Notes: generated by a model from the letters alone, not told the origin. 64,000 nt of DNA from Polyangia bacterium (GCA_035258845.1 DATFWX010000218.1:17354-81353), one strand, 5' to 3'; shown: positions 13,311-50,524, numbered from the stretch's first letter. Program-made: numbers and translations.

Positions 13311-13336
13311 GGTTGCTCCCTCCTTCGGCAGACGGG

Positions 13337-14803: not shown

Positions 14804-15087
14804 GCTTCCGCTTCCGCTTCCGGTTTCGGTTTGTCCACGAAATGGCCTGCCCCGCAACCGGTTCCTGCTGCAACACCACGAGTTGCGGTAGGCTCTAGCA
14901 AGCGTGTTCGCGCCACACGAAACCACCAGGGACCCCCAACCTTCCCGTTTCGCGGCCGCGTAGCCAGTCGGCGACATGAAGGCACGCTTCTTGCTGTTCT
15001 GCCCCCCAACATGTCTGGCCCCGCACAGCGGCGCCGCTCATCGACGGTCATGCCGCCGCAAAGTACAGGTGCAATCGGCATTTCCCC

Positions 15088-15756: not shown

Positions 15757-15824
15757 GTCGATGATAGGTCAAAGCTTCCCTGCAGCGACGCTCATCGTGA
15801 TGACGGACGCGGTCGTGGCCGCCA

Positions 15825-16079
15825 TCAGCCAACCATGTGAACGAGCCATCGCTTGAATTGAGGCCAGAGATTCAATCGCCCCACAACGCAAATGTCGCCG
15901 ACACGCAGGTCCTTTCCCTGCTCAAGTCGGTCTATCCCGTCTACGAGAGATTCATTCCACATGACCAGTATCGGAAATTCGTCGTTCTCGCGCAGGTTTC
16001 GAACAACTATCACATGGGTTGCGTCTTTCTCCCTGGCCTCTTGAAGCCAGCGCCGGATATCGGCGGCAGTCGCGAGCAT
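15825..16079 (-). CDS. small hypothetical protein in a lower-GC patch
   Basis: 84-aa ORF (..KDATHVIVVRNLRENDEFPILVMWNESLVDGIDRL..) in a ~300-bp stretch clearly lower in GC than its surroundings. The coding call is tentative. Confidence 0.3.
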   Translation of the reverse strand: MLATAADIRRWLQEAREKDATHVIVVRNLRENDEFPILVMWNESLVDGIDRLEQGKDLRVGDICVVGRLNLWPQFKRWLVHMVG

Positions 16080-32100: not shown

Positions 32101-32240
32101 CGCGCGAGCAGCTCGGGGGGCTGTGGCCAGGGCTCGGCGCGCACCGGGGCCAGGTCGACGACCGTTCCAGCCTCACTGCTCGCGGTCGAGCCGCTGCTCT
32201 CGCTGGAGCGACCCTCACCGTGTTCCCCAGAGCCCATCAC
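29142..32240 (-). CDS. Ser/Thr protein kinase with C-terminal TPR-repeat region
   Basis: Canonical Hanks motifs: GRGGMGAVY, VALK, HRDFKPDN, DFG, SPEQ. One TM segment. Roughly 600 aa of TPR-like repeats follow. Confidence 0.85.
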   Translation of the reverse strand: MMGSGEHGEGRSSESSGSTASSEAGTVVDLAPVRAEPWPQPPELLARGATLGRYVVLDRIGRGGMGAVYAAYDPELDRKVALKMVQPRRTRAQPQPAQQTRLLREAQALAQVSHPNVVAIHDVGSVGGQVFLAMELVEGETLRKWLETRPPPSEVLKVFVAAGRGLAAVHAAGLVHRDFKPDNVIIRRDGRVCIMDFGVVRAIERAATDERDLAAEPDLAPASEDEDASPIPYRDALVTPLTQAGAVVGSPPYMSPEQFRGHAVDARADQFSFCVALYEALNGQHPFERHPAGEADRWTLHPPRERRAPARVQRALVRGLSESPEARHPSMDALLAELLQVGRARWGKLVLAVALLLIAGFEAAAALRGRRAEQLGICGGASAADQLASVWSPSRKLALERAFLATGRSYAAEAWTRTARVLDDFASRWASVRAEACAAGLGVGGRSNSPLSLRMVCLERRRQELGALTDLLAQPDDQILEQSISAAHALTPVEQCLEVDAMHAPAPLPLDPVARKRSEQFGYALVRSKSLLDAGKYADGLKLVEPVAREAGPLGDRSLEAEALELKGSLQNKLGDLPAAEKTLMRAVWAGEASSQQVVVARASSTLVSVLYSQAKGELARQWSEPAVAALAGLKHDPSTEATVHMAIGGLLISEAKPLEAIEPLRRALALREKYLGLDHPDVGATESMLASAYRIAEQYDMAVPHARRALAIRERSLGARHPETARALFNMGVLFAELGRVSEALDYQRRALAAREAALGPQHPSTGRSWDELGVLQMELGRYQEALAAFGRADAVLSHGPRSSAVLSAWVNGHTGMALVRVGKPVEGLKLEQRALAVIEQVTPQDDHGAILLIEVARSLEALGRHAEALGFLQRALASSRRDRRESLAMQAAAREALGRWHLEGGHPEAALAELGQALALREHYLGRDNPGLAEALLGLGQAQLAQRAPTAAVAPLERALALLEHAGACAPERLSDTRFALARALWESGGDQRRAFALAGQARDSYPQSSNQRHLQEMATWLRKHPLAER

Positions 32241-35661: not shown

Positions 35662-37062
35662 ATGAGTCCAGCGTCGGTTACAATAGGCCTGCCGATGTCC
35701 GCGGAAACTTTAGGCCAGGCCGTGCGCATCGTGGTGGGGGCAGCGAAGCAGCCCGAAACCCACGAGTTCATCTACGATCACCTGCCGATCCGAATCGGAC
35801 GTAACCCGCTCAACGAGCTGCAGCTCGATGACCGACATGTCTCACAATGGCATGCAGTGGTGCTCTACCTCGACGGTGCGATCCGGGTCGCAGATGTAGG
35901 CAGCCGCAACGGCACCTATGTCGACGGCCGTTCACTGACCGTGGGCGAGGCGGTTCCGCTGCTCGGATCGAGCCGCGTCGAGATCCGCCCGTTCACGCTC
36001 GAGGTCGATCCGCTCGATGAGCCCGCGGCCGCCAAGCCGCAGATGCTGCGCGCGCAGGGCCGGCAATGGGTCGATCACACGCGCACCTATGAAGCCGAGC
36101 AGGCGGAGTCCGACTCGGCCTCGACCTCGCTGGTGACGGCATGGAAGGCCGACCTGCTCTCGCAGCTGCGGCCGCTCTACCTGGCCTACGAGGGCGACTG
36201 GGCTTTCCTGTGCGATCGGCTGCGCGAGTACCTCGATCAGGTGGGGCCGCAGATGCGCCTGGCGCTGCTGCGCGAGCTGCAGGCCGAGCTGCCCGCGTAT
36301 CGTTGGGACAGTGCCTTTCCGGAGCTGCGCGCCGACGAGAAAACGCCCGCCCCCTCTTTCGACCCCGAGCATCCCGCGATGCCCGCATTGCGCGATCTGG
36401 CGGAGCATCTGATGGGACGCAAGCACGCGCTGGCAAGCCCCGCGGAGGTGATCGCGTTTTTGGCCCGCGTCCGCGACATCACCGACGTGTTTTTGCATTT
36501 TACGCACAGCCTGCTCAAGGGCTCGCGCCAGATCGAGTCGAGCCTCGCGATGCCGCTGTTCGAGCGCGAGAGCAACCCACTGCATCGCGTGCGGGACGTC
36601 GGCGATCTGGGTGCGCGCCTGTTGGATTTCGAGGCCGATCGAGAGGGTCGCGCGCCGCCCTGGCTCGAAGCCGCTTTCAAAAGTGTGCTCATGCAGCAGA
36701 TCGTGATGCTGAGTGGGATGATGAACGGTGTGCGCACGCTGCTCGACGAGCTGGCGCCCGAGCGGGTGGCCGAGGAGCTGAAGCTGGGCAAAAAGCGCGT
36801 GGGGCCATTCCGCGCCCAAAGACTGTGGCAGGCCTATCAGGCGCGCCACCGCCAGCTCAGCCAGGAGGATAAGGCCACCTTCGAGCGCATCTTTGGTCCC
36901 CATCTCGCGCGCGCGTACGACGAGATCATGGGTGAATGCTACGACTCGCGAGGAGCCGGCAGGCCCGGGACGGCGAGCCAGCCCGGGGGGGCCACGGGCC
37001 CGACCCGCGTCGTGGTGGGGCCGAAGGCGCGTGCCAGCCGCGGCGGCCGCAAGCCGCGCTAG
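35662..37062 (+). CDS. FHA-domain protein (T6SS Fha/TagH-like)
   Basis: N-terminal FHA domain (IRIGRNPLNELQLDDRHVSQWHAVVLYLDGAIRVADVGSRNGTYVDG) plus a ~350-aa C-terminal region. Lies immediately upstream of the PAAR gene and near tssM/tssL and a PpkA-like kinase. Confidence 0.75.
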   Translation: MSPASVTIGLPMSAETLGQAVRIVVGAAKQPETHEFIYDHLPIRIGRNPLNELQLDDRHVSQWHAVVLYLDGAIRVADVGSRNGTYVDGRSLTVGEAVPLLGSSRVEIRPFTLEVDPLDEPAAAKPQMLRAQGRQWVDHTRTYEAEQAESDSASTSLVTAWKADLLSQLRPLYLAYEGDWAFLCDRLREYLDQVGPQMRLALLRELQAELPAYRWDSAFPELRADEKTPAPSFDPEHPAMPALRDLAEHLMGRKHALASPAEVIAFLARVRDITDVFLHFTHSLLKGSRQIESSLAMPLFERESNPLHRVRDVGDLGARLLDFEADREGRAPPWLEAAFKSVLMQQIVMLSGMMNGVRTLLDELAPERVAEELKLGKKRVGPFRAQRLWQAYQARHRQLSQEDKATFERIFGPHLARAYDEIMGECYDSRGAGRPGTASQPGGATGPTRVVVGPKARASRGGRKPR

Positions 37063-37189
37063 TGTCCTTTTCCGAGGACGTAGGCCCCAGTTTGCCGTCA
37101 ACGACCTTTCAACTCGCCACACTAAGCGGCGCAACGGCAGGGGATTCGCCCCTTTGACAGCCTCTGGGGGCCAAGTATCCTTAAGGGTT

Positions 37190-37810
37190 ATGAGCCGGGG
37201 AGGCCGGCCCGCGGCCCACGTCGGGAGCAAGACCAATCACGGGATCACCAGCGCGGACAAGCAGACCGTCCACGTAGGGGGCCGGCCGGTCTCGTACGTC
37301 AACGCCCCGCATAGCTGCAAAATGCACAAGGGGAAAGGCCGCAAGGTCGCCTCGGGCGCCCCCACCGTGCTGGTTTACGGTGTGCCCGTGACCCGGGTCG
37401 ACGAGAAGATGACCTGCAGCTGCAAGGTTGTGGACGGCGTCCAGAACGTGCTGGTCGGCGACGCCAAGCCCGAGCTGGGCCCGCTCGAGCCGGTCGATCT
37501 CTGGATCCGCCTCGATCTGGACCCCCAGGCGGCGTCGGTGTGCTCGGATCGCTACATCCTGACCGCGTCGGACGGCTCGTATCGACGCCAGAAGATTGTG
37601 CTGTCCAACCACATTCCCAACCAAGAGACGGTCGACCTGCATTACCTGGGCTTGCATCGCAGCAAGAGCTACAGCCTGGAGGTGATCGAAGAAGGCGGAG
37701 CCTCCACGTTCGTGTTCCAGAACGTGCCGTACCCACAGCTGGCGGGGCTCAAGGGACCCGCGCGCACGCCCCCGCCCGCAGGCGGCGGCTCGTGCTCCTG
37801 CCATTCCTAG
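37190..37810 (+). CDS. PAAR-domain protein (T6SS spike tip) with C-terminal extension
   Basis: N-terminal PAAR-like repeats (HGITSADKQTVHVGGRPVSYVNAPHSC ... VLVYGVPVTRVDEKMTCSCKVVDG). Start trimmed to ATG 37190. A vgrG is nearby. Confidence 0.65.
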   Translation: MSRGGRPAAHVGSKTNHGITSADKQTVHVGGRPVSYVNAPHSCKMHKGKGRKVASGAPTVLVYGVPVTRVDEKMTCSCKVVDGVQNVLVGDAKPELGPLEPVDLWIRLDLDPQAASVCSDRYILTASDGSYRRQKIVLSNHIPNQETVDLHYLGLHRSKSYSLEVIEEGGASTFVFQNVPYPQLAGLKGPARTPPPAGGGSCSCHS

Positions 37811-37811
37811 C

Positions 37812-38591
37812 ATGGCGGTTGCGCTGACCAGCGATCTGCAGGGGCCCGACCATCCCGGTCCGACCGTCCACGTTCAGAAGAAGATCAAGCTGGTCATGTA
37901 CCCGGGCGAGTCCACCAACGCCAGCGGTACGACGCTCGGGCATATCTACGTGGTGGGCGGCAACGGCGAGTCGTACGAGATTGCGGCCGGGCCGCCGGCC
38001 GGATTCGCCGACCGGGGCGGCCACTCGGCCATCCCGACCCCGGCTGGCAAGTACGTGCTCGGTCCCAAGCACCATCACGTGACGCCGGGCTGGCCGGCTT
38101 CGACGGTGCCGTGGGGCGCCGATCTGCGCACCGACACAAACGGCGAGGTCGAGTTCTCGCCCGATGGCGGCAAGAGCTGGCGCAAGGCGACCGGGATGAA
38201 TGGCGCCACCACGCAGGCGTCGATTCGGTTCCTCGAGAAGGATTGGAAGCGGCCGCTGACCGAGGACGAGAAGCAGCAGGTGAACGCCCAGGCGCGCGGC
38301 TTGTTCTACGACGACACGGGCAAGCTGCAGACCCCTTATCGCGGCAACGACTTTGGCAACTGGGCCTGGAACCTGACCCGAGGCGGGGCGGTCACACCGT
38401 ATTACCTGCACACCACCCCACCCGACGAGGCCGCGAGCGCGGCCGGGCAGCCGGTCAGCCTGGTCAACTCGCACGGCTGCGTGCACATCCGCCCGGCCGA
38501 CCGCGACGAGATGATGCAGAAGGGCTATCTGCGGAAGGGCGTCGAGATCGAGGTCAAGCCGTACGGGCAGAAGGGTCCTCCCAAACCGTGA
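37812..38591 (+). CDS. putative T6SS effector with L,D-transpeptidase (YkuD) fold, Tlde1-like
   Basis: C-terminal ...YYLHTTPP...SLVNSHGCVHIRP matches the YkuD catalytic SHGC(V/I)R motif, with a His about 20 residues upstream. The gene starts 1 nt after the PAAR stop. No signal peptide. Confidence 0.5.
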   Translation: MAVALTSDLQGPDHPGPTVHVQKKIKLVMYPGESTNASGTTLGHIYVVGGNGESYEIAAGPPAGFADRGGHSAIPTPAGKYVLGPKHHHVTPGWPASTVPWGADLRTDTNGEVEFSPDGGKSWRKATGMNGATTQASIRFLEKDWKRPLTEDEKQQVNAQARGLFYDDTGKLQTPYRGNDFGNWAWNLTRGGAVTPYYLHTTPPDEAASAAGQPVSLVNSHGCVHIRPADRDEMMQKGYLRKGVEIEVKPYGQKGPPKP

Positions 38592-39484
38592 CGTCCCTGC
38601 GCGGGGTTCTGCTGCTCGTCATGCTGGGCGGGACTGGCCCGGCGGCGGCCGCCGATTCGACCTGTGGGGCGCGCAGCCGTGAGGTGGCGGCCTCGCTCGG
38701 GCGGGCCCGGCTGGCCATGTCGCCCGAGGCAGCGGTGCGGGCGAGCTTCGAGGGAGCCGTGCGCGCGCTCGCCGAGTGCGTGGGCGACGAGGAGCTGTGG
38801 TACCTGCTGGTGCGGTCGGCCGAGCTCGGCGGCGGCGTGTTCCCGACGCAGGTTGCGAATAGCACGGTCGCCGACCTCAAGGCCGCGGTCGAGCTGGCGG
38901 CGCGTCGGAATCCCAGGTCGGCGCGCATCGCGACCATTCGCGCGCGCGTGATCGGGGGTCTGCAGGCGGCGCGCCAGGCGGTCGCGCTCGATCCGGCCTA
39001 CGCACCCGCCCAAGTGACGCTGGCGGCCGCGCTGTTCGCGGCCCGCGACGCCAAGGCGGCCCGCAGCGTGCTGGCGGCGCGTACCGACCTCGCGCGCGTC
39101 CCGGGCGCGTGCGCGCTGCTGGCGCGGGCCTGTCTGGCCGAGGGCGACGCGAGCGAGGCCATCGCGGTCGCCGAGCGGGAGCCGGCCCCGAGCGCGCTCG
39201 ATCTCTACGAGCCCGGCGCCCGCGACGAGCGGCCCCGGCGCGATGCGGTCGAGGTGGCCGGGCTGGCGTACCTGCACAGCGGACAGTTCGACCCGGCGGC
39301 CCAGCGGCTGCTTCAGGCGGCGGCCGAGGGCTCAGCGGCTGCGCGCACCGCACTGGAGACCGGAAGCCCCGAGCTCCGGCGGGCGCTGGACCGGCTGGCC
39401 CGACGCAAGGGGCTGGCGCCGCGCGAACGGGCCCTGCTGCGCGAGCTCAAAACCCCACCGGCCCGCCGCACTCACCCCCAGTAA
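38588..39484 (+). CDS. putative periplasmic immunity protein (helical/TPR-like)
   Basis: GTG start overlapping the effector stop (GTGA). Signal peptide LLLVMLGGTGPAAAA. Ala/Leu-rich helical repeats. Immunity function is inferred from position only. Confidence 0.4.
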   Translation: MTSLRGVLLLVMLGGTGPAAAADSTCGARSREVAASLGRARLAMSPEAAVRASFEGAVRALAECVGDEELWYLLVRSAELGGGVFPTQVANSTVADLKAAVELAARRNPRSARIATIRARVIGGLQAARQAVALDPAYAPAQVTLAAALFAARDAKAARSVLAARTDLARVPGACALLARACLAEGDASEAIAVAEREPAPSALDLYEPGARDERPRRDAVEVAGLAYLHSGQFDPAAQRLLQAAAEGSAAARTALETGSPELRRALDRLARRKGLAPRERALLRELKTPPARRTHPQ

Positions 39485-39512
39485 CGCCTTTCGATAGTGG
39501 TAAGAAGGCCGT

Positions 39513-40418
39513 TCAGGCGGCGGGCTCGCCGCCGCCCACGACGCCCTGATAGCTCGGGAAGTGATCGAGAAACACCTTCACCGAGGGAGCGCGCGCCATC
39601 GCGACCGCGTATCGGGGCGCCGGGTAGCCCTCGGCGAGCGCATCCGCGACGTCGGACATCCAGCCCAGCGTGGCGCGATAGTCCTCGAGCGGCCGGTGCT
39701 GATGCACGTACTCGTAGGCGACCTCTCCGTCGCGGGTGTCGATCGCGCACAGGATGGTCGCGCGCAGCCCGCCCTCGTGGCCCACCAGCGGATGCGTGGG
39801 CACGGCCAGCGCGGGCGCCGGTCGGATTTTCTCACGCAGCGGCCAGGGCAGAAGGCGCCAGGCTTTGCGCACCGCGTGGCTCAGCTCGCCCACCGCTGCC
39901 GCTGCCAGCACTGCCGCCTGCTGCGCCCCCGGCTGGCCGCGTACCGCTTGCTCGAGGTGCGCCAGAAAGCCCTCGAGCAGCTCGTCGCAGCCCGACAGCA
40001 CCCGGAACGGACGCTCGACGCCGCTCAAGATGAGCTCGAACAGGCCCTCGCATAGAATGGTCCGCACGTCTCCGGTGAAGCCGGGCGACAGCACGAACCG
40101 GCGCTCGTACAGGGTCGCCACCGGAAGGGTCGTGACCTGCAGGACGTAGGGCTCGGCGGCCCCGTCCGGATGCAGCACGAACTCGATCCAGCCTCGGATC
40201 CACTGCTGAGGCGCGTCCAGGTACAACTGATCCCGCACCTCGAGACGCCCGCCAAAGCTCTTGCGCAGGCGGCTCTCGAGCGTGCGGATCTCGTCGCCAC
40301 CGTCCGAGAGCCGGCCCAGGCACAGTCGGCCTACACCGACGTCGAAGAAGTCTCCATCCTTGCGCACGATCACGCCCACCACCTCGCGGTCGAGGATCTC
40401 ACTGAGGCGATCGTGCAT
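39513..40418 (-). CDS. hypothetical protein (T6SS-associated by position)
   Basis: 301 aa from MHDRLSEILD... Last gene of the minus-strand tssL-tssM operon. No recognisable motif. Confidence 0.4.
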   Translation of the reverse strand: MHDRLSEILDREVVGVIVRKDGDFFDVGVGRLCLGRLSDGGDEIRTLESRLRKSFGGRLEVRDQLYLDAPQQWIRGWIEFVLHPDGAAEPYVLQVTTLPVATLYERRFVLSPGFTGDVRTILCEGLFELILSGVERPFRVLSGCDELLEGFLAHLEQAVRGQPGAQQAAVLAAAAVGELSHAVRKAWRLLPWPLREKIRPAPALAVPTHPLVGHEGGLRATILCAIDTRDGEVAYEYVHQHRPLEDYRATLGWMSDVADALAEGYPAPRYAVAMARAPSVKVFLDHFPSYQGVVGGGEPAA

Positions 40419-41922
40419 CGGGCTCGTCGGGGCCTGGGGGGGCGGGCGCCGCCGCGGCGCGCATCCGGGGCGGCTTGGCCTTGCCGGACACCCAGACGCC
40501 GTGCAGCGCCAGCTCGGGCACACCGGTTTCGATGCGCCAGCCGCCCTCGCTTCGGGTCAGGATCACACTGTAGCCACTGCGCTTGCCCAGGGCCATAACG
40601 GTGCTTCCGCCACCGGCCGAAACCACTTCGTCGACCGGCAGCGTCTCCTGGGTCCAGCCGGCTGGACCCAGCACGAGCGCGGCGCCGCTCGACGAGACCA
40701 GCCCTTCTTCCCACTCCCAGCCGCTCCAGCCGCCCAGGATGGCGCCCACCGGGGGCACGCGGCCGTCGCGCGACCAGCGCCCACGCGAAAACAGCATGAC
40801 CTCGGCGCCCGCCTCCGACCCGCCGGCCGCGATCACGGTGCCGCCGACCGCGCTGATGCGATGGACGGTGGCCGCCACCGGCAGCTCCAATCGCTTCCAG
40901 CCGTAGCCGTCGAAGTGCACCACGTAGCCGCCCTCCTCGCCGATGTACACGTCGCCGGGGCGGCTCGAAAAGATGCAGCGCAACGAGCCCCGGCTCGGCA
41001 CCTCGACCCGCCGCCACCCGGCGTGGTCGAGCACCAGCACGGTGCCCTGGTCGCCCACCGCGCACAGCGAATTTTCATCGAGCGGCCAGAGCGCATGAAG
41101 GTCGGCCGTGGTCGGCGCCTGCAGGCGCCGCCAGCGACCGTCGCGCAGCTCGGTCACGGCGCCGCCCGCGCCCACCGCCAGCGCCCGGTCCTGAAAGCCG
41201 CACACCGCGCGCAGCTCGGCGTCGCAATCCGAGCTCATCAGCTTCCACACGCCATCGAAGCGGCCGAGCGCGGTCCCGTAGGCGCCCACCGCGAGTGCGT
41301 CCGCGCGCCGGTCCTCGGCCGCCTGACCCTCCGCCACCAGCAGAAATTCCTCGAGATAGCTCTGGCACCCGGTGAGCCGGCCCAGCAGCGGCTCGGGCGC
41401 CGAGGCCGCCGACGCGGTGGCCAGATCGACGCCCAGCTTGGCAAACAGCGGGCCCGCGTCCGTCCACGGCAGCCCTTCGCGGACCGACTTCCAGGCATCG
41501 CACAGATCGGTCAGCCGCTGCAGAAGCGCGCGCGCCTGGCCGACCTCGAGCCCCCGAAACAGCGCGACCGGAAACAGGGCCACCCGGCCCCGTTCGCTGC
41601 GCTCGAGCGCCCGCACCAGAAGCGCGCACGCGCTGCGCAGCCCATCGGCCTGCGCCGGGATCTTGGCCGCCAGCGCCTGCAGGCGCTCGCTCGCCACCCC
41701 AACCGGGCTGCATGCGAAGAAACACGCCACTCCGCCGGCGTCGGCCACCTCGGTCTCGTCGTAGTCGAAAAGAGCAGTCCAGAGCGGCGGTACATCGCCC
41801 TGGGTCAAGGCCACCGCCGCCTGCGAATGCGTGGCCACGGCCAGCGCCTCCGACTTGGAGGCAACCGCCAGAAGTCGCAGCTCGGGAGCCAGCGGGGGCG
41901 CCTTCTCGGCGGATCGAATCAT
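40399..41922 (-). CDS. hypothetical protein with beta-propeller-like repeats (T6SS-associated by position)
   Basis: 507 aa. C-terminal repeated G-x-x-G-x-V-x-x-DG-x-W-x-R blocks. Start codon 1 nt after the tssM stop. Confidence 0.45.
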   Translation of the reverse strand: MIRSAEKAPPLAPELRLLAVASKSEALAVATHSQAAVALTQGDVPPLWTALFDYDETEVADAGGVACFFACSPVGVASERLQALAAKIPAQADGLRSACALLVRALERSERGRVALFPVALFRGLEVGQARALLQRLTDLCDAWKSVREGLPWTDAGPLFAKLGVDLATASAASAPEPLLGRLTGCQSYLEEFLLVAEGQAAEDRRADALAVGAYGTALGRFDGVWKLMSSDCDAELRAVCGFQDRALAVGAGGAVTELRDGRWRRLQAPTTADLHALWPLDENSLCAVGDQGTVLVLDHAGWRRVEVPSRGSLRCIFSSRPGDVYIGEEGGYVVHFDGYGWKRLELPVAATVHRISAVGGTVIAAGGSEAGAEVMLFSRGRWSRDGRVPPVGAILGGWSGWEWEEGLVSSSGAALVLGPAGWTQETLPVDEVVSAGGGSTVMALGKRSGYSVILTRSEGGWRIETGVPELALHGVWVSGKAKPPRMRAAAAPAPPGPDEPDARSPQ

Positions 41923-41923
41923 G

Positions 41924-44900
41924 TCATCGCACCTGCGCGGGACAGGTCAGCGGGGGCGGACGCTGCAGCGGATTGGCGGTCCGCTCGGGCCGGATGTCGA
42001 GCCGCACCTGGGCTCCGGTCTTGAGCGTCCACGTGAGCTGGTAAATTCCACCGCTCGCCTTGACCATGTGGGCCGCATCAAACAGGTGAAACGGTGCCCA
42101 TTCGCCCTGGAACTGCAAGGCATCGATGACGCCGTTCGCTCCGGCCACGCTCAGGCGCGCGCCGTGCTTCTTGGTCGCCGACGGCCACTCGTAGTGCCAG
42201 CGCTCCTCGGGCGTGTTGCGGAACGTGTTCTTCTTGCCCTCGATCTCGAGGGTCAGCGCGCCCACGTTGCTGCCCACCGGCTGCGGCCGCACCTCGAACG
42301 CGAACTGCGGGGTGGCGGCGCCGGTAGGAAACAGCGCGTTCTGCCACATGGCGGCACTGTGCAGACAGGAAAGGAGCGAGCCCGAGAACATCTTGCCGTA
42401 GCGCGGCTCGGGACGAAAGATGACGCCGTCGCGCGGCAGATAGCGCGCCAGATGTTGGTCGTAATGCTTCCACAAAAGGCCGTTCTCGCGCAGAAACTCG
42501 CTGGAATCGGCGATCGTCGCATCCGGTCCATGATGCGCGAACGGATAGCGCCCGGCGATGCTGTTCGAGTAGGCCGAAAAGACCCCTTGACCCCACGACC
42601 CCGACAGCCGGTCGCTCGAGGTCCTGATGGTGGTCTGGGTCGACAGCGAGACCGGCTGCTCGAATAGCTGCCCGACCATCGAGCGCGTCTGCTCGTCCAT
42701 GGCCTCGTTGAGCAGGCGCTGCGTGAACTCCTGGGCGGCCCGGGTCTCGTCGCTGGCCTTGGTCGATTCGCCGGCGCCCATCTCCTGCTCCGAGCGCATG
42801 GCCGTGCCCAGCCGGGACAGGACGGCCAGATACTGCCCGAGCGGCGCGTCGGCCTTGCCGGGCGGCTGACCGGTCAGGCTGCGGATGCGCGCGAAATCCG
42901 ACTCCAGAGGAGCCACGATCTTGGGCAGGTCGGGCGGACGCATGCCCAGCCCGGCGTCGGGCAGGCCCAGGCGGCCCTCGATGCGGCCCTCCACCTTGGA
43001 GGTCAGCCGCCGCAGCGCAGCGTCCTCGGGCTCCTCGTCGGGCGGAATCGAGGTTTCGTCGATCACGTGCTTGAACAGGCGCACGTAGGGCGGATTGTCC
43101 CCGGTCAGGACCTGGATGTCGCGCAGCATGTCGTGCGGATTTCCGGTCGGGCGCACGGACAGGCCCCGCAGAAAGCTCTTCCAGGCGGCCGCGTAGCTGC
43201 GGAAATAGGCGGCGTAAAGGGCCTCGCGCGCCACGTCATGGCCGCTCGCGCAGTCGGTGGCCAAAACCCACGAGTCCTCGGACATGCGCGAGCGCACCTC
43301 GCGCAGGCGCCGTCTCACGAACTGCTCCCAGCCTCGGCGCGTGTAGCAGCCCGGCACCGAGCCGGCGGAGCGCACCACGGTCTGCACCAGGCCGTCGAGC
43401 GCATCGTTGAGCTCGAACGGCCGCACGCGGCTCTTCGCCTCCGCAATCGCCTCCTCGACCATGGATTCGTCGGCGCGAGCGCGCAGAAGCGAGGAGCGCG
43501 CGCCTGCGACCAGCGCCTCGTCGGGCGCCTGCGGCAGCTTTCCGTGCGCGATGGCGCCGCTCAGCATGCGCAGGTGCGGGCTCAGCTGCATGTCGGACGG
43601 CAGGCTGCGCCGCCGACGCAGAAAATCCTTCCACAAGGGCAAGAGCTGGCGCTCCAGGAACCCGCGATCGATGTGCTTCTTGCATTGCCCGTCGGCCAGC
43701 ATCAGATAGGTCTTGAGCGTGTCGAAATCCTCGCGGTACGACTCGGGTGTGCGGCGACCGCCGCCTCCAATCCAGGACAACCGCTCCTCGAGCATGGCGG
43801 TGACCGGACGGGTCAGGATGGTCGCCAGCTCGGTGAAGTAGAATCGTTCCACCGGCGGTTGGAGAATGCGCCCGCGAAACATCCCAAAGCCCAGCGACAG
43901 CGGCGGCCCGTCGGCGTTCCAACCCTCGATTTCCTCGAGCTGCGCGCGCAGCTTGTCGAGCCGCTCGAAGTCTTCGGCCGTCCGGTCGGCCTCGCCCCAG
44001 GGCACCTTGGCCACCTGACGGCTGTTCTCCTTGACGTCGGCGGAAAGACGCAGGTTGCTGTAGCCGGACACGATGCCGCCCAGCAGGATGAGGCCGCCCA
44101 GCGTGCCCGCGACCGCCGAAGCCACCATCTGCACGCGTGAGCGCGCGCGCCTTTGACCCAGCGACAGCCCGGCCAGATCGCCGTCGGGGAAGATGACCCG
44201 CGTGAACAGATCGTGCAAGAAGTAGCTCTTGCGCTCACGCTGGCCCTTGAACAGGTTTTCGACCGCGCGATCGGGCAGCCCGAACACTCGCCCCACCTCG
44301 CTCATCACGCGGTCGATGGGGCGGCCTTCCTGGGTGCCGCTGGTAAAATAGACGCCGCGCAGGATGGGCACCTGCTGGTACGGGTTGGGCCGGAACAGCT
44401 GTTGCAGGAAGTAGAGCAGATCTTCGCGTTGGCGCGCGAACTGGCGCGGGAACTGGAACACGGCCTCGCGCACCTCCAGCTCCGTCTCCTGCGACACCCG
44501 GTACAGCATGCGCTCGTACAGCTTGTCGCTCAAAAGGTCGAACTCGCGCGCGCACGCTTCCTCGGGATGCGCGGGCGTGTCGAGCGGCAGCGTGAAGCCC
44601 AGGATCTGCCCGGCGTCGCGGCCCATGTCGCCGAAGTACTCGACGAAACCGCGCAGAAGGTCGCTCTTGGTCACGAGCACGTAAGCGGGCAGGGTCAGCT
44701 CCAGCTTCTCCATGATCTCGCTCATGCGAGCGCGCACCTTGGCCGCCATGTCGCCGAGCTCGTTGCGGGGCGCGCCTAGCGACGGCACCGGCACCGCAAC
44801 CATGATGCCGTTGAGCGGCCTTTTGCGCCGATGCTTCTTGAGCATCTGCAGAAAGGCGACCCACTCCTCGGCGTCCTCGTCCTCGATCATGTAGCGGCCC

Positions 44901-45403
44901 GCGGTGTCGAGCAGGATGGCCTCGTCCGCGAACCACCAGGTGCAGTTGCGCGTCCCGCCCATGCCGCGGATGCCACGCGCGCCTGTGGGCAGGTAGGGGA
45001 ACGACAAGCCCGAGGCCAAAAGAGCGGTCGATTTGCCGGCCGAGGGCGGGCCCACGATCATGTACCAGGGCAGCGCATACAGCGCGGCCTGGCCTCGTCC
45101 GCGGCCCAGCGAGGAGCGCTTGAGCGCGCTCAGGGCGCGCTTCATCTCGCTTGCCAGCGCAGCGATCTCCTCGCGCCGGTCCGGGTGCGCCGCGCCCGGC
45201 TCCTCGATCCCCTTCTCGATCGCGCGCGCGCGCCGCACCCGCACGATGCGGCGCCAGATGAGAAGCACGATGAACGGGACCCAGATCAGCGCCAAGATCA
45301 GCAGGCGCAGAAGCACGCTCGAGAGCCCCAGGGGCGGCCCGAACAGCCAGATTAACAGCGACACGAAGACGAGAGCGACCAGGAGGAGGATGATCTTGAG
45401 CAT
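41924..45403 (-). CDS. tssM: type VI secretion membrane protein TssM (IcmF family)
   Basis: Three N-terminal TM helices, Walker A (GPPSAGKST), and a long periplasmic IcmF-like C-terminal region. Start taken at MLKIILLL (45401-45403). The longer ORF call adds an N-terminal extension that would overlap tssL. Confidence 0.8.
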   Translation of the reverse strand: MLKIILLLVALVFVSLLIWLFGPPLGLSSVLLRLLILALIWVPFIVLLIWRRIVRVRRARAIEKGIEEPGAAHPDRREEIAALASEMKRALSALKRSSLGRGRGQAALYALPWYMIVGPPSAGKSTALLASGLSFPYLPTGARGIRGMGGTRNCTWWFADEAILLDTAGRYMIEDEDAEEWVAFLQMLKKHRRKRPLNGIMVAVPVPSLGAPRNELGDMAAKVRARMSEIMEKLELTLPAYVLVTKSDLLRGFVEYFGDMGRDAGQILGFTLPLDTPAHPEEACAREFDLLSDKLYERMLYRVSQETELEVREAVFQFPRQFARQREDLLYFLQQLFRPNPYQQVPILRGVYFTSGTQEGRPIDRVMSEVGRVFGLPDRAVENLFKGQRERKSYFLHDLFTRVIFPDGDLAGLSLGQRRARSRVQMVASAVAGTLGGLILLGGIVSGYSNLRLSADVKENSRQVAKVPWGEADRTAEDFERLDKLRAQLEEIEGWNADGPPLSLGFGMFRGRILQPPVERFYFTELATILTRPVTAMLEERLSWIGGGGRRTPESYREDFDTLKTYLMLADGQCKKHIDRGFLERQLLPLWKDFLRRRRSLPSDMQLSPHLRMLSGAIAHGKLPQAPDEALVAGARSSLLRARADESMVEEAIAEAKSRVRPFELNDALDGLVQTVVRSAGSVPGCYTRRGWEQFVRRRLREVRSRMSEDSWVLATDCASGHDVAREALYAAYFRSYAAAWKSFLRGLSVRPTGNPHDMLRDIQVLTGDNPPYVRLFKHVIDETSIPPDEEPEDAALRRLTSKVEGRIEGRLGLPDAGLGMRPPDLPKIVAPLESDFARIRSLTGQPPGKADAPLGQYLAVLSRLGTAMRSEQEMGAGESTKASDETRAAQEFTQRLLNEAMDEQTRSMVGQLFEQPVSLSTQTTIRTSSDRLSGSWGQGVFSAYSNSIAGRYPFAHHGPDATIADSSEFLRENGLLWKHYDQHLARYLPRDGVIFRPEPRYGKMFSGSLLSCLHSAAMWQNALFPTGAATPQFAFEVRPQPVGSNVGALTLEIEGKKNTFRNTPEERWHYEWPSATKKHGARLSVAGANGVIDALQFQGEWAPFHLFDAAHMVKASGGIYQLTWTLKTGAQVRLDIRPERTANPLQRPPPLTCPAQVR

Positions 45404-45404
45404 G

Positions 45405-46304
45405 TCAGCGACCCTGTGCTTCGCCGTACTCCTTGAGCTGCGTTGCCGTGTCGGTGGCGCTCTTGTCCGAGAGCTGGGCCAGGCCAAACAAGAGCACCAG
45501 CACCCCGACCACGGCCAGGGCCACGGTGGCGAAGCCGGGCAGCCGCCGCTTCTGCGCGGGCGCCGTGTCGGGGCGCTCGCCATGGGGCGACAGCGACGGG
45601 CTGGTGCGCCGTCCGCGCTGCGGCAACACCTCGCGCCGAACTTCCTCGAGCAGCACGGCCAGCTCGGGCGTCGAGCCCAGCCGATAGCGGCCCTCGAATC
45701 CCAGGGCCAGGCACAGGTAGTACACCTCCAGCGCCTGGGCGGCGTCGCGTGCCTTCCGGATCTGGTCCAGATGCTGGAAAAACACCTCGCCGGCGATGTT
45801 TTCCGCAAAATACTGGATCTGCAGGGGCTGCTTGACCCAGTCGTCGCGGACCGGGGACTTGGTGTGCAGGATGGTCTCGTCGATCAGAGCGACCAGCCCA
45901 TACCGAGCGTGCTCGACCTCGGTGGGCGAGATCTGGTACTCGACCGCATCGGTGTCGAGCTGATCGAACAGCTCCTTGAGCTTGCGTGCCAGCAGGGAAG
46001 CCGCCGGTACCTCACCGGTCGTGCGGATACGCAGGACCAGCGAGAAAAAGTCCATGCAGAGCTGCGCCAGCCGCGGGGTCGAGCTCTCCTCCTCGTCCGC
46101 CGGCTGGGGCCGATCCATGCCGAGCGCGGACGCCCACCAGCGCGCATTCCGCGGGGGCTCGCTCATGGGCGGCGGACGCCGCGGCTCGTCCTCGGCACGC
46201 CCGCCCGCGCCCGCACCGTCGAACGACGCGGGTCGGGTCGAGCGGGCTCGGCCGCCTTGAGCTCCGGCAGGGCCGCGATCAGAGCGCCGATAGCCCGACA
46301 TCAC
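45405..46304 (-). CDS. tssL: type VI secretion protein TssL (DotU family)
   Basis: Cytoplasmic DotU-like domain (..LVALIDETILH.. YYLCLALGFEGRY) followed by a single C-terminal TM helix (VALAVVGVLVLLFGLA). Immediately upstream of tssM. Confidence 0.7.
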   Translation of the reverse strand: MMSGYRRSDRGPAGAQGGRARSTRPASFDGAGAGGRAEDEPRRPPPMSEPPRNARWWASALGMDRPQPADEEESSTPRLAQLCMDFFSLVLRIRTTGEVPAASLLARKLKELFDQLDTDAVEYQISPTEVEHARYGLVALIDETILHTKSPVRDDWVKQPLQIQYFAENIAGEVFFQHLDQIRKARDAAQALEVYYLCLALGFEGRYRLGSTPELAVLLEEVRREVLPQRGRRTSPSLSPHGERPDTAPAQKRRLPGFATVALAVVGVLVLLFGLAQLSDKSATDTATQLKEYGEAQGR

Positions 46305-47887
46305 TCCCTCGTGGGCTCGAGCGTGACGTCAATCGCGATCTGCTGACCTGGCTGCAAGGTCACCTCCCGCTCCACCGTGCGATAACCAGGGGCTGCCACC
46401 ACCAACCCGTGGGCGCCCGGCTCCTTGGTTTCGATACGCGCCCGCCGGACCGATCGCGCTACCATTTGGTGGTCGAGCCAGATCCGCGCCTCCACATTGA
46501 CCTTTAGTGTAATCACGCTGGGCTCGTGCCCTGGGGTGGGCGGCGTGTTGAGCTGCATCGGCGGCATGGATGGTCGCGCGCTCGACCCATCCCTGCCGTC
46601 CCAACGCTGATACAGCGCCCAGCCGGCCAGGATGACGCCCACACCCACCGTCAACGCGAGCAGGAACAAGAACACCGGCGAGATCCGCTCGTGCTCGGGC
46701 GCGGCCGTCACCTCGCGGCGCGGCTCCGGGGTGAGGCTCAGCTCGGGCTCGAGCTCGGGCTCGAGCTCGGGCTCAGGCTCGAGCTCGGGCTCAGGCTGGA
46801 ACTCGAGCTCGGGCTCGCGCTTGGGACCGGGACTGAGCACCCGCGCACCCGGCGACGAACCGCTCGGCGGCGACGGGCGCATGAGCGCGGGAGCCGGGTT
46901 GCGAACGATGGGGCCGGCCGGCCGCCGCACGGTTCGCGACCGCCGGGGCTCGGGCAGCTGCTGGTCGGGCGGAAGAACTTTGGTCTCGCCCACGCCCGCG
47001 AACGGGTTGAGCGCGCGCCGCGAAGGCGACGAGCCCGGCTCCTCGGGCAGGGAGGCGCTCTGATCGAGCAGCTGATCGCGCACATCCTGCACGGTCGGGC
47101 GCTTTTGCGGATCCTTGTCGAGCATGCGTAGGAGCAGGCGCTCGAGCTGCTGCGGGATGTCGGGCCACAGCTCGCGCGGCTCTGGCTCCACCACCGAGTG
47201 GGCCTTCACGGGACGGCGCCCCAGCAGCATCTCGAACGCCATCACACCGAGCGAGTAGACGTCGGATTCGGGGCTGATCGCGAGCGCGTGCGTCTGCTCC
47301 GGGGACGCGTAGGCAGCCGCGCTGAGCACCACGGTGGGCGCATTGTACGCGCGGTCACCGGACAGCAACTTGGCGATGCCCACATCCGCCACCTTCACCA
47401 GATCGAACCGGGTGGGCAAGAGAATCAGGAAAACATTGCTGGGATGGAGCCCTCCGTGCGCCACGCCCTGGCCATGGCAGAACTCGAGGCCATCGCACAC
47501 CTGCACCAGGATGTCGATCGCATCCAGGTGGCGCAGTCTGCGGTCACGCATCCGCGCGGCCAGCGTCTCCCCCTCGATCCAGTCGCGGATGACGTAGAAG
47601 CAGCCATCGGGCAGAGTCCCGAAGGCCAAAACATCCGCGAGGTTCGGGTGCCGGATGCGGTTCAGGATCCGGACTTCATCGAGAAAGCAGTGCACCGCGC
47701 CAGGGGGCAGACCGGCCGAGATGATGCGGAGTGCCACTTCTTTGCCCACGGAGGGCTGTCGCGCGCGGTAGACAGCGCTAAGCGCGTCCTCCGCGATCTT
47801 GTCATGCACCTGGTAGTCGACCGCAAACTCTCGAGGAACCCCAGGGCTCGGTAGGTCCCCAGCAGCCGGCCGCTCCCTCATCGCCAT
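46301..47887 (-). CDS. PpkA-like Ser/Thr pseudokinase with periplasmic C-terminal domain
   Basis: Kinase fold present but catalytic signatures are degenerate. Gly-loop IAEDALSAVY (no GxGxxG). VALR instead of VAIK. HGGLHPSN instead of HRDLKPxN. DVG instead of DFG. APE retained as SPE. A PEPELE tandem repeat is followed by a TM helix (VFLFLLALTVGVGVILAGWAL) and a ~100-aa C-terminal domain. Confidence 0.7.
   Translation of the reverse strand: MAMRERPAAGDLPSPGVPREFAVDYQVHDKIAEDALSAVYRARQPSVGKEVALRIISAGLPPGAVHCFLDEVRILNRIRHPNLADVLAFGTLPDGCFYVIRDWIEGETLAARMRDRRLRHLDAIDILVQVCDGLEFCHGQGVAHGGLHPSNVFLILLPTRFDLVKVADVGIAKLLSGDRAYNAPTVVLSAAAYASPEQTHALAISPESDVYSLGVMAFEMLLGRRPVKAHSVVEPEPRELWPDIPQQLERLLLRMLDKDPQKRPTVQDVRDQLLDQSASLPEEPGSSPSRRALNPFAGVGETKVLPPDQQLPEPRRSRTVRRPAGPIVRNPAPALMRPSPPSGSSPGARVLSPGPKREPELEFQPEPELEPEPELEPELEPELSLTPEPRREVTAAPEHERISPVFLFLLALTVGVGVILAGWALYQRWDGRDGSSARPSMPPMQLNTPPTPGHEPSVITLKVNVEARIWLDHQMVARSVRRARIETKEPGAHGLVVAAPGYRTVEREVTLQPGQQIAIDVTLEPTRE
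46738..46815. repeat. 12-bp tandem repeat (ctcgggctcgag / ctcaggctcgag, ~6 units) encoding (PELE/PEPE)n linker
   Basis: Read directly at 46741-46815. Lies within the pseudokinase gene, just upstream of its TM segment in protein coordinates. Confidence 0.7.
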
Positions 47888-47979
47888 ATCCAGAAGGAGA
47901 ATCTACTTCGGCCAAGGCTTCGGGTCAATTCGGGAAATAGGCGATCGACAGATGTGGGCCCGACACCTATAATCTCCCC

Positions 47980-48768
47980 ATGGCACAGAATCTGTCGCAG
48001 CCGAGCGGATGGAAAGGCTCGACGGTCACGGACCCCACGCGGCCGCGCGTGTACACGGGCTTTTTCGATGGCAGCAACGAAGCGGAGCGCCAGTTTCTGG
48101 CCGCCCTGCCCAAGGTGACCAAGTTCATCAACGATCGCTTGAAAGCGGGCGGCTATGCCTTCGACGTCCACCAGGCCGAGATCGCAACCAACTTCATCGG
48201 GGAAGGCGGCTACTATCCGCTGCACTGGAACTACTGGCAGCACATCGACGGCTTTGGCGCGCTGGGAATCGACACCTTCGTGCAGCGGCGCCAGGCGCTC
48301 AAGCGTTGGGTCCCCGATTCGGTCATGAAGCTGGCCGACGACCCCCACCACGTCGGCAAGACTCTGAATGAAAAGCGCGAGACGGTGACGTTCCTCACCG
48401 ATCTCGACATGGAGCAGGGCCTGTACGCGAACGCGGGCATGTTCGCGCTGTGCATCGCCACGGCTGCCAACGACATCCCCGGATTTGCGCAGCTCCCGCG
48501 CAAAGTCCGCTTCTTCTGGGCAACCGTCTACTACAATTCGGGCGAGGGCAAGGGACGCTCGCTGCTCAAGCAGCACGGCGTCGACTACTACAAGACTCCG
48601 TGGAAGGGCCCCGAGAACATGATGTCGCCGCTCTTCAACGCGCTCTGGCGCATGCGCACCATGGAGACGCTGCTGCAGGCGCTGTGGCCGGGAACCGATC
48701 GTCCCCCGCCGGCGGCGCCGTCCAGCAACCCCGACCCGGCGTCGAGCGAAAAGGACCCGAATTCGTAG
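47980..48768 (+). CDS. hypothetical protein
   Basis: 262 aa with good GC3 bias. No signal peptide or recognisable motif. Convergent with vgrG. Confidence 0.45.
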   Translation: MAQNLSQPSGWKGSTVTDPTRPRVYTGFFDGSNEAERQFLAALPKVTKFINDRLKAGGYAFDVHQAEIATNFIGEGGYYPLHWNYWQHIDGFGALGIDTFVQRRQALKRWVPDSVMKLADDPHHVGKTLNEKRETVTFLTDLDMEQGLYANAGMFALCIATAANDIPGFAQLPRKVRFFWATVYYNSGEGKGRSLLKQHGVDYYKTPWKGPENMMSPLFNALWRMRTMETLLQALWPGTDRPPPAAPSSNPDPASSEKDPNS

Positions 48769-48778
48769 CTTCGTTCGC

Positions 48779-50524
48779 TCAGCAGTTCAGCTTGACCATA
48801 CCGCCCTTGATGTCGTTGACGTTCTGCGCAACCGCATCGATGTCGGGCGCCGTGATGCTGATCCGGTCGGGCGTGAGAACGACTTTCGAGTTGCCGACCT
48901 GGATCTCGATCCGATCGGTCGCGGTGAGCGAGATGGTCTTGGCGGAGTGCTTGGCGTCGTTGACGACTTCGGTTTCCCAGTCGTGTCCGACCTGCATCCG
49001 GCTGTCTTTCTGCGCGCGGATGTAGACCTCCTCCGAGCCCGCCGCGTCTTCGAACCGCAGCTCGTTGTGCCCGTTGTTGCCCGGCGACGAGCTGGTCATG
49101 ATGGTCGAGATGGTCTTGGACTTGGGCAGATCGTAGGGCACCGGGTGGGAGCCGTTGTAGGTCTGGCCGACGATGACGGGCCGATCGGGATCGCCTTCCA
49201 GAAACTGGACCAGCACCTCCTGACCCACGCGAGGGATGAAGATGGCGCCCCAGCGTGCGCCTGCCCACGCCTGCGCCACCCGGATCCAGCAGGAGCTGTC
49301 GGGGTTGTCTCCGCCGCCGCGGTCCCACCGGAAGCGCACCTTGACGCGGCCGAACGAATCGACGTCGATCTCCTCGCCCGCCTTGCCCACGACTTCGGCC
49401 GAGTGGAGCCCGAGGACGATTGGACGCGGCGTGACGCGTGAAGGCCGGTACAGAACAGCCGCGCCGTCGTTGCCCTTGTCCTTGGTCGGCACCGCCAAGA
49501 AGTCGTTGGAATACCCGAGCGCGCCGCCGGCGTGGTTGACCGACTCGACCAGATACTCCTGGTTCAAGTCTTCGCGCGGGTAGCGCAGGCCCTCGTGAAC
49601 TGCGTCCCCCAGATCGAAGGTCAGGCCCGGCACCAGGCGGTTGCAATTGCTGTGACCGTGACCCGTGAACTTGGTGGCCTGGAGCTCTTCGAGGCGCACC
49701 TTGGCCAGGCGGGACGCCAGATCGGTGTCGACGCACTCGGCCGGATAGTCGTAGATCTGCCCGGCCGCCTCCTGCGCCGCGGCGGTGGCACCCACATCCA
49801 GACGCGGGCTCTTGAAGCTGTAGTCGCGCAGCGTGACCTGGTGCGGCCGCAGATCCTTGCGGAACGTCAGATCCCAGATCGAATCGAGGTCCTGCGACAT
49901 CCCGTGCTCGGGCGTATAGGCGATGGCGGCGTCGGTCTTGCTTTCGGAGATGGAACGGAAACCTGATACGTCGTCGGTGCAGACCATCTTCAGGTGGTCT
50001 TGGCTGTGCTCGAAGTAATAGGTGATGCCCTCTTCCTCGAGCAGGCGTGAGATGAACTCGAGATCCTGCTCGCGATACTGCACGCAGTAATCGCGCGGCG
50101 TGTAATTGGCCTTGAGCTTCCACTCCACCTCGGTCTGGATGCCGCCCTTCTGCAGCACGTCGGTGACGACCTGGCGGGTCGTCTTGTGCTGGTAGATGCG
50201 CAGGTTTCGGTTGAGCGACAGCCTGAGCAGCGGCGGCGTCAGCACGACCCGGTTGACCACATAGTTTTCGAGCGGTGTGCGCTCGTTGGCGATGGTTTGT
50301 ACGCGGAAGATGACACCGTGCACGTTCCGGGTGGCCTGGCGCCCGGGAACGATCAGGCAGCCCTTCTTTCCCAGCATGGATTCGAACGGATAAGACAATG
50401 GGAGCAAGAGGTCGATGTGAAACTGGTAGGGTGTCGAAAGCGCCTCGGTCCCCGAAAAGCTCTGGACACGAATCTGCTCGTCGGACCCTTCGACCGTGAA
50501 ACGAAAAGGGAATTGCAGTTGCAT
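48779..50524 (-). CDS. vgrG: type VI secretion spike protein VgrG (TssI)
   Basis: gp27-like N-terminal and gp5-like OB-fold regions (..VLTPPLLRLSLNRNLRIYQ.., ..GRVKVRFRWDRGG.., ..RVAQAWAGARWGAIFIPRVGQEVLVQFLEGDPDRPVIVG..). No long C-terminal effector extension. Confidence 0.85.
   Translation of the reverse strand: MQLQFPFRFTVEGSDEQIRVQSFSGTEALSTPYQFHIDLLLPLSYPFESMLGKKGCLIVPGRQATRNVHGVIFRVQTIANERTPLENYVVNRVVLTPPLLRLSLNRNLRIYQHKTTRQVVTDVLQKGGIQTEVEWKLKANYTPRDYCVQYREQDLEFISRLLEEEGITYYFEHSQDHLKMVCTDDVSGFRSISESKTDAAIAYTPEHGMSQDLDSIWDLTFRKDLRPHQVTLRDYSFKSPRLDVGATAAAQEAAGQIYDYPAECVDTDLASRLAKVRLEELQATKFTGHGHSNCNRLVPGLTFDLGDAVHEGLRYPREDLNQEYLVESVNHAGGALGYSNDFLAVPTKDKGNDGAAVLYRPSRVTPRPIVLGLHSAEVVGKAGEEIDVDSFGRVKVRFRWDRGGGDNPDSSCWIRVAQAWAGARWGAIFIPRVGQEVLVQFLEGDPDRPVIVGQTYNGSHPVPYDLPKSKTISTIMTSSSPGNNGHNELRFEDAAGSEEVYIRAQKDSRMQVGHDWETEVVNDAKHSAKTISLTATDRIEIQVGNSKVVLTPDRISITAPDIDAVAQNVNDIKGGMVKLNC

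Follow-up and report, generated by a model that had tools for sequence, protein, structure and literature searches.

We examined a 64,000-nucleotide stretch of DNA from a Polyangia bacterium (GCA_035258845.1 DATFWX010000218.1:17354-81353), hereafter the window, and found that a gene within its type VI secretion system (T6SS) locus encodes a predicted membrane-anchored pseudokinase, which keeps a Hanks-type kinase fold and has lost two of the three catalytic-triad residues (the VAIK Lys and the HRD Asp, with Asp168 of the DFG motif kept). The gene opens an operon and shows translational coupling to tssL, its stop codon overlapping the tssL start codon in GTGATG. By analogy with known systems, we lean, with some reserve, towards a role of the protein as a non-catalytic regulator, scaffold or sensor of the TssL-TssM complex, which would be phosphorylated in trans and would recruit Fha. 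An earlier note on this DNA had described the product as a T6SS-linked, PpkA-like protein devoid of nearly every catalytic determinant. The T6SS link and the loss of catalytic residues both hold, and the homology to PpkA does not.

The register of the catalytic motifs was established by HMMER alignments to the solved structures of Stk1, PknB and PknA. The 120 nearest homologues in the database were also aligned with MAFFT, phmmer served to align 149 representatives that an exhaustive search had returned, and the window's other two kinases were aligned as well. The register was identical in every alignment, i.e., against the solved kinases, some 270 relatives and the two window kinases, and all alignments, including that to solved PknB, put IAEDALSAVY, VALR and HGGLHPSN where the earlier note had read them. 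The beta3 Lys, conserved in 100% of 78 relatives (alignment A1), is replaced by Arg, and the glycines of the Gly-rich loop are gone. In the catalytic loop, the HRD Arg, the HRD Asp and the following Lys have become Gly, Gly and His, respectively, with His144 and Asn151 kept, and HGGLHPSN is unchanged in a strain variant of the gene (L016). Two other motifs call for a different reading. The DFG to DVG substitution, previously counted among the catalytic losses, is indeed present, but the metal-binding Asp is kept and relatives themselves have DWG, DLG or DMG at this position, so no catalytic residue is lost here. Likewise, the SPE that had been called APE-like is present and aligns on SPE, which is the usual form in this kinase family and thus no deviation. 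A shifted register restoring the canonical Lys or Asp, named beforehand as the finding that would speak against a pseudokinase, was looked for and rejected, since the independent alignments agree. K49 (in GKE) was also rejected as a substitute Lys, since it is present in the family consensus too.

Of the 82 columns with at least 85% conservation among the 78 relatives, the protein deviates at 30, against a family median of 3. The changes affect the nucleotide pocket (G32A, G34D, G35A, M36L, K54R and, in the hinge, M101R and E102D), the regulatory Arg of alphaC (R67C), the catalytic loop (R145G, D146G, K148H) and the activation and P+1 loops (T182N, G185T, G189S, T190A, P191A, with GTP of the P+1 loop turned into SAA). 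Those at Arg67, in the hinge and in the P+1 loop add to the losses listed earlier. Structural residues are retained (the alphaC Glu E71, H144, N151, D168, G170, E197 and D209), as are the residues of the hydrophobic core. Bacterial pseudokinases have been defined as proteins with a Hanks fold without at least one of the VAIK Lys, the HRD Asp and the DFG Asp (10.1101/2025.01.12.632604), and the protein, judged by its sequence, fits this general definition. What a catalytically competent Hanks-type kinase would be expected to have, namely the Lys, the HRD Asp and the Gly-rich loop, is gone. On the basis of current knowledge about Hanks kinases and pseudokinases, we infer that the protein probably phosphorylates nothing and works through binding.

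The GC content by codon position (0.74/0.48/0.84, i.e., GC3 of 0.84) marks a genuine gene in a window of 68% GC, and exact copies are present on Logan, ENA and JGI contigs. Gene calls place the start at Met3 (coordinate 47881), giving an identical 526-aa product in three independent metagenome assemblies. Pfam Pkinase (PF00069) matches residues 25-270 (E 4.5e-32, 111.9 bits against a cutoff of 31.7), and Pfam PEGA (PF08308) matches residues 485-526 (28.4 bits; gathering score 20.8). The AlphaFold2 (AF2) model, built on 78 homologues, has predicted local distance difference test (pLDDT) values above 90 over residues ~20-285, below 50 over residues ~291-448 and of ~93 over an all-beta part at residues ~450-526. 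Foldseek matched the N-terminal domain to X. citri PknS, S. aureus Stk1/PknB and M. tuberculosis PknA (TM scores normalised to the target, 0.76-0.80), consistent with the earlier statement that the overall fold is kept. The product is therefore best modelled as a bitopic membrane protein with a Hanks-type kinase fold, in which a cytoplasmic kinase-like domain is predicted to be followed by a linker, a single transmembrane helix, a short Pro-rich spacer and an extracytoplasmic PEGA domain; the helix and the periplasmic C-terminal domain had both been anticipated. The C-terminal domain is also described as CarboxypepD_reg-like and is not a vWA domain. The linker (118 aa) contains 26 Pro, 18 Glu and 14 Arg residues and a TxxL site at T302 (TKVL).

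In the operon, the pseudokinase gene is followed by tssL, tssM and two orphan open reading frames (ORFs). Its position as first cistron, the stop/start overlap with tssL and the presence of tssM next in line indicate that the protein is made together with the T6SS inner-membrane complex, and genes for TagH/Fha, PAAR and VgrG lie nearby. Promoter-like sites in the operon occur solely in the 92-bp gap 5' of the pseudokinase gene (2 against 0.3 expected, by consensus match only). Ahead of its DotU domain, TssL has an N-terminal extension of 78 aa rich in Arg, Pro and Ser, with a TxxL site at T76 (TPRL), and lacks a domain for peptidoglycan binding at its C-terminus; the TssL variants L005 and L016 have G31D within this extension. 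The Walker A motif of TssM reads GPPSAGKST. The FHA protein mentioned in the earlier note is TagH, which scored 83 bits on TIGR03354, below the cutoff, and in which the phosphothreonine (pThr)-binding residues GR, SxxH and NG are all intact.

Orthologues beyond the source population were found neither in a word-indexed search of 5.8 billion proteins nor in a GTDB genome scan or a JGI metagenome scan; HMMER, run exhaustively on 1.84 billion cluster representatives, gave no match above 44% identity, and the 526-aa sequence is absent from the clustered protein collection. The searches returned solely copies of at least 99% identity from the same population and paralogues at 44% identity or less. 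The closest single-domain matches are canonical Ser/Thr kinases (STKs) of the Polyangia/Kofleriaceae receptor type, with 470-580 aa and 37-44% identity (e.g., P0184, P0201 and P0208), of which P0201 and P0208 align over their full length and have the layout of kinase, linker, transmembrane helix and C-terminal domain in common with the pseudokinase. There are no T6SS genes around the three nearest relatives whose contexts were examined on long contigs (P0007, P0002 and P0011), and the idea that the nearest kinases are active, T6SS-linked orthologues was rejected on this ground. The kinases of L001-L003 and L017-L019 are unrelated.

Since all the nearest relatives are canonical, the motif loss is derived and specific to the lineage of the pseudokinase, and it was accompanied by accelerated evolution. 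The identity of its kinase domain to outgroup kinases is 31.0%, compared to 37.6 +/- 1.1% for 39 ingroup members, and its root-to-tip distance in a neighbour-joining tree is 1.33 vs 0.99 +/- 0.05 for the ingroup, a branch about 7 standard deviations too long. We propose that the ancestor was an active myxobacterial receptor Ser/Thr kinase with the layout of kinase, linker, transmembrane helix and PEGA domain. Descent from an older "HGG" pseudokinase family was considered and rejected. Degenerate HGGL or HGGI domains do occur in tandem multi-kinase proteins in the phmmer alignment, but they score far below canonical single-domain kinases against the pseudokinase and are much more distant from it, so that nothing points to a shared origin. 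The summed-score ranking of the exhaustive search is led by giant proteins that carry 3-10 kinase-like domains in tandem, mostly degenerate (HGGL, HGNL, HRN and similar; P0162-P0177, P0198, P0254 and P0309), which look like a class of tandem pseudokinase arrays. Membership in one of the seven conserved pseudokinase families (ActPs1-3, DLHK, GLW, CP1 and DYD) also appears unlikely, because all relatives are canonical kinases. A defence-system reading was rejected, as the PADLOC matches (mad6 and PD-T4-6) are generic kinase-domain matches without partner genes.

Polymorphism was sampled from four near-identical copies of the gene in other assemblies. The kinase, transmembrane and PEGA parts have four synonymous sites (codons 36, 152, 413 and 417) and no non-synonymous one, while the linker has one synonymous site, all three of the gene's amino-acid changes (M336I, A348G and Q364E) and one in-frame 12-bp deletion; in the same comparison tssM has six synonymous and two non-synonymous sites. 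Although the numbers are small, the pattern matches a folded protein under constraint whose linker is free to vary, and not a pseudogene. The deletion falls in a tandem repeat which Tandem Repeats Finder (TRF) reads with period 6 (14 copies) or period 18 (5 copies) and which encodes EPELEFQPEPELEPEPELEPELEPEL, an (EPEL)n repeat ending ~17 residues before the transmembrane helix. The strain variant L016 is without exactly one 12-bp unit, GAGCCCGAGCTC, equal to one EPEL, in frame, which directly confirms the slippage hotspot suspected earlier. Through such slippage, the acidic, proline-stiffened spacer that links the pseudokinase domain to the membrane would become longer or shorter.

Taken together with the T6SS setting, these features suggest a possible mechanism. 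The periplasmic PEGA domain may report an envelope cue, and the cytoplasmic pseudokinase domain with its long acidic, proline-rich linker may serve as a docking platform or allosteric partner at the membrane. An active STK of the genome could then phosphorylate in trans a Thr of the linker (e.g., T302, in TKVL) or of the TssL extension (T76, in TPRL), both of which fit the common pTxx[ILV] preference, and the phosphothreonine would recruit TagH/Fha via its pThr pocket, the intactness of which implies that a phosphothreonine ligand still exists. The canonical kinase at 32289-34310, which lies 1.3 kb from the fha gene, is a candidate for the trans-acting kinase.

Several points weigh against such a role. 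The trans-acting kinase, the phosphorylation site and the Fha interaction are conjecture, and TxxL motifs are common. The evidence for selection rests on 8 single-nucleotide polymorphisms, and the searches gave no orthologue more diverged than ~99% identity, so that the degenerate motifs cannot be shown to have been conserved in the course of evolution. The T6SS locus itself (35662-50524) is partial and rearranged: it has vgrG, tssL, tssM, tagH/fha and PAAR, and there is no tssJ, tssK, tssA/B/C/E/F/G, hcp or clpV within the 64 kb, i.e., no sheath, tube (Hcp), baseplate, ClpV, TssJ or TssK gene. Finally, Asp168 and Asn151 are kept and Arg54 could in principle contact phosphate, which makes nucleotide binding possible. 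This last point leads to the reading of the protein as an atypical active enzyme, binding nucleotide and carrying out phosphotransfer or, e.g., AMPylation via non-canonical residues, like WNK, CASK or SelO-type proteins. The retention of the alphaC Glu71 along with these two residues, the conservative nature of the Lys to Arg replacement and the observation in reviews that nucleotide binding persists in some pseudokinases (10.1101/2025.01.12.632604, PMC12599244) would agree with it. However, the catalytic base is a Gly and HGGLHPSN has no acidic residue; all three loop glycines are gone, with the acidic E33 and D34 at the phosphate-binding position; the hinge and the P+1 loop are altered; and pseudokinases degraded in several motifs are nearly always without ATP binding (PMC12599244). 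We consider this reading very improbable.

Two further explanations leave catalysis aside. The gene could be an evolutionary relic, i.e., a duplicated receptor kinase that landed upstream of tssL and is now decaying without function, its motifs eroding. Myxobacterial genomes hold very large kinase families, and redundant copies are therefore to be expected; the very long branch, the many changed conserved columns, the restriction to one population and the fact that the nearest TssL relatives have tssK and not a kinase upstream of tssL all fit such a decay. Against this, a frame of 1587 nt has stayed intact in a 68% GC genome with coding-type GC3, the hydrophobic-core and structural residues are kept with a confident fold prediction, polymorphism in the folded parts is entirely synonymous, with the sole indel in frame, and the gene is translationally coupled to tssL, so that we regard a relic as decidedly unlikely. 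The protein could also be a structural subunit of the membrane complex, with phosphorylation playing no part, a constitutive component like EssB/YukC, which might compensate for missing TssJ and TssK contacts while Fha binds elsewhere. Its gene lies directly upstream of tssL, where relatives have tssK, the window has no tssJ, tssK or PP2C gene, and the architecture matches that of EssB/YukC as described in PMC12599244. But TssK is a baseplate protein of quite different fold, which may be encoded elsewhere, the intact pThr pocket of TagH argues that phospho-signalling persists, and there are no orthologues to show co-inheritance with tssL-tssM; a purely structural subunit is thus unlikely in our assessment. 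We also entertain a bolder form of the non-catalytic role, which we hold to be doubtful though conceivable, in which the T6SS recruited a dead receptor kinase as a dedicated TssL-TssM subunit or sensor, a convergent counterpart of EssB/YukC, that would act as a ligand-gated, non-catalytic scaffold replacing the PpkA/PppA switch, with a spacer length tuned by slippage.

Post-translational control of T6SS firing is understood only via the active PpkA/PppA/Fha pathway and TagF. If the non-catalytic regulatory role is true, a pseudokinase beside the phosphothreonine-reading Fha would mean that the pathway either runs with a kinase in trans or is rewired into a non-catalytic scaffold, and it would extend the very short list of bacterial pseudokinases of assigned role (MviN, EssB/YukC) by one from a Gram-negative secretion system. 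The titles and abstracts of the literature matches listed on pseudokinases, type VI secretion and PpkA describe no T6SS-encoded pseudokinase, and to that extent the combination of a pseudokinase and a T6SS operon is unreported; it is mechanistically suggestive. Its weight is limited by the fact that it comes from one uncultured soil population without evolutionary replication, and by the expectation that kinase-rich myxobacteria yield degenerate paralogues.

Table 1. Features of the pseudokinase gene, its product and its neighbourhood (coordinates in the window; residues numbered in the 528-aa product)
Feature	Coordinates	Strand	Basis or remark
Pseudokinase gene	46301..47887	-	528 aa; 1587-nt frame, intact
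Predicted kinase fold, cytoplasmic, catalytically degenerate, residues 20-285	47033..47830	-	AF2 pLDDT >90; Foldseek
Degenerate Gly-rich loop IAEDALSAVY	47768..47797	-	aligns on LGGGGMSTVY; family form LGxGGMGxVY
VALR, beta3 Lys to Arg54	47726..47737	-	aligns on VAIK
Catalytic loop HGGLHPSN	47435..47458	-	aligns on HRDIKPQN
DVG, metal-binding Asp168 kept, Phe to Val	47378..47386	-	aligns on DFG
Disordered juxtamembrane linker, residues 286-401	46685..47032	-	AF2 pLDDT <50; composition
Tandem DNA repeat, unit GAGCYC, readable as 12-bp/18-bp units	46735..46825	-	TRF score 112
Single transmembrane helix, residues 402-425	46613..46684	-	Kyte-Doolittle 19-residue maximum 2.54
PEGA beta-sandwich, predicted extracytoplasmic, C-terminal, ~residues 452-528	46304..46534	-	Pfam; AF2 pLDDT ~93, five to six strands
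tssL (DotU)	45405..46304	-	Pfam DotU E 1.5e-47
tssM (IcmF)	41924..45403	-	Pfam IcmF-related_N, IcmF-related, IcmF_C; start from gene calls on contig L004
Orphan gene coupled to tssM 3' end	40399-41922	-	beta-propeller model
Second orphan gene, coupled to tssM 3' end	39513-40418	-	no detectable relatives or domains
Promoter-like hexamers TTGACC-17 nt-TAGATT	47900..47928	-	consensus match; divergent partner 47945-47973 (+)
Orphan gene, 262 aa, between vgrG and the pseudokinase gene, divergent from the latter	47980-48768	+	called on contigs L004 and L006
vgrG	48779..50524	-	Pfam Phage_GPD, Phage_base_V, Gp5_trimer_C
TagH/Fha	35662..37062	+	Pfam FHA domain and T6SS_FHA_C
PAAR gene, then YkuD/L,D-transpeptidase-fold gene, 1-nt gap	36893-38591	+	PF05488 E 3.7e-12; PF03734 E 7e-6
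Canonical Ser/Thr kinase	32289-34310	-	fused to periplasmic PhnD-like phosphonate-binding domain, PF12974 E 4.8e-59
Canonical Ser/Thr kinase	29142-32240		Pfam; motif alignment

The other genes around the operon are summarised in Table 1. One opposite-strand gene, the 262-aa orphan, separates vgrG from the pseudokinase gene, and it gave no Pfam, NCBIfam or PADLOC match, relaxed thresholds included. The orphan next to tssM has two database homologues only, and its model combines a low-confidence N-terminal helical region with a generic 7-bladed beta-propeller, Ycf48/WD40-like. The TagH, PAAR and YkuD-fold genes lie ~9 kb downstream of the pseudokinase gene on the plus strand. The PAAR and YkuD genes together look like a Tlde1-type effector pair, PAAR-linked and directed at the cell wall, and an ORF at 38525-39277 (-) is a candidate partner of this pair. 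Both STKs of the window lie within ~17 kb of the pseudokinase gene, and motif alignment bears out their description in the earlier note as canonical. No PP2C gene was found in the 64-kb window, either in Pfam scans of its ORFs or by tblastn with the PP2C of the T6SS locus L010 described below, and one could lie outside. A hidden PP2C, TagF, TssA, TssJ or TssK among the unannotated operon genes was rejected, none being detected by Pfam at E values up to 5 or by tblastn with T6SS proteins of L010. Another part of the window, the stretch 6000-16000, is possibly an acquired island, with a lower GC content (0.63-0.65 vs ~0.70 elsewhere). An integrase fragment (7326-7904), a sigma factor of the ECF type (8876-9355) and a protein with a caspase domain (10086-11663) are encoded there.

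T6SS loci with related TssL proteins provide a further point of reference. In the nearest TssL relatives, it is tssK, not a kinase gene, that lies directly upstream of tssL, and the usual tssJ-tssK-tssL-tssM order is found in L010, L020, L021 and L012-L014. The TssL proteins of L010 and L020 are 39-43% identical to that of the window, and both loci (L010:1044-7964 and L020:901-7991) contain a conserved module, divergent from tssJKLM, that encodes a kinase, a PP2C and three FHA proteins, one of the latter fused to an SLT lytic transglycosylase. This T6SS accessory module is apparently undescribed. Its kinases (813-836 aa, 69% identical to each other) have a transmembrane helix and several PEGA domains, and their motifs are canonical (VAIK, HRDIKPGN and DFG). 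Thus, T6SS-linked PEGA kinases exist in active form with a phosphatase.

The periplasmic part of the pseudokinase sets it apart from PpkA, since a vWA domain occupies this position in P. aeruginosa PpkA. The likeness to PpkA (TagE; P. aeruginosa H1-T6SS, S. marcescens, A. tumefaciens; PMC3953482) lies in the N-terminal Hanks-type domain of a single-pass membrane protein, in a gene beside tssL and tssM and in the TagH/Fha gene of the cluster. In A. tumefaciens, PpkA phosphorylates TssL at Thr14, and phosphorylated TssL then binds Fha (PMC3953482). Unlike PpkA, however, the pseudokinase has lost its catalytic Lys, HRD Asp and Gly-loop, it has a PEGA domain in place of vWA, no PppA (PP2C) is encoded in the window, and its nearest relatives are ordinary receptor STKs, of which the three with examined contexts lie outside T6SS clusters. 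Without vWA and PppA, and with another STK family as its source, the protein is not a PpkA orthologue, and the term "PpkA-like" can be retained for the setting only, the more so as tssK holds the place upstream of tssL in the nearest TssL relatives. It sits where the PpkA/PppA/Fha pathway would be expected, but its predicted activity, its periplasmic domain, its missing phosphatase and its ancestry all differ from those of PpkA.

The Polyangia/Kofleriaceae receptor STKs are the closest homologues and have the same layout where the alignment is full-length, but they all retain canonical catalytic motifs and the three contexts examined are not those of a T6SS. The kinases of the L010/L020 module share with the pseudokinase the T6SS link, the membrane anchor and the periplasmic PEGA domain, and differ in their canonical motifs, their PP2C partner and an identity of 31% over the kinase domain; the pseudokinase is their catalytically degenerate, phosphatase-less counterpart, arisen independently.

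[quoted passage not shown] The architecture is analogous, with a cytoplasmic pseudokinase domain, one transmembrane helix, an extracytoplasmic domain and a gene within the secretion machine. EssB/YukC belongs to another secretion system and phylum, however, it is a conserved core component whereas the pseudokinase is lineage-specific, and it is far more degenerate, with all three motifs lost and a reduced activation loop; it was not among the 60 best PDB sequence matches listed, nor among the 50 Foldseek matches listed. In M. tuberculosis, MviN has a pseudokinase domain that cannot bind ATP; PknB phosphorylates the segment beside this domain, and the FHA protein FhaA is thereby recruited (PMC12599244). 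MviN, an actinobacterial protein of the ActPs3 family, differs in its fusion to a lipid II flippase and its shortened activation loop, and it controls peptidoglycan synthesis rather than secretion; the shared kinase fold is the closest relation shown. Nevertheless, a membrane-anchored pseudokinase with a trans-phosphorylated flank that recruits an FHA protein, as in MviN-FhaA (PMC12599244), is the very model that we propose for the pseudokinase of this T6SS operon.

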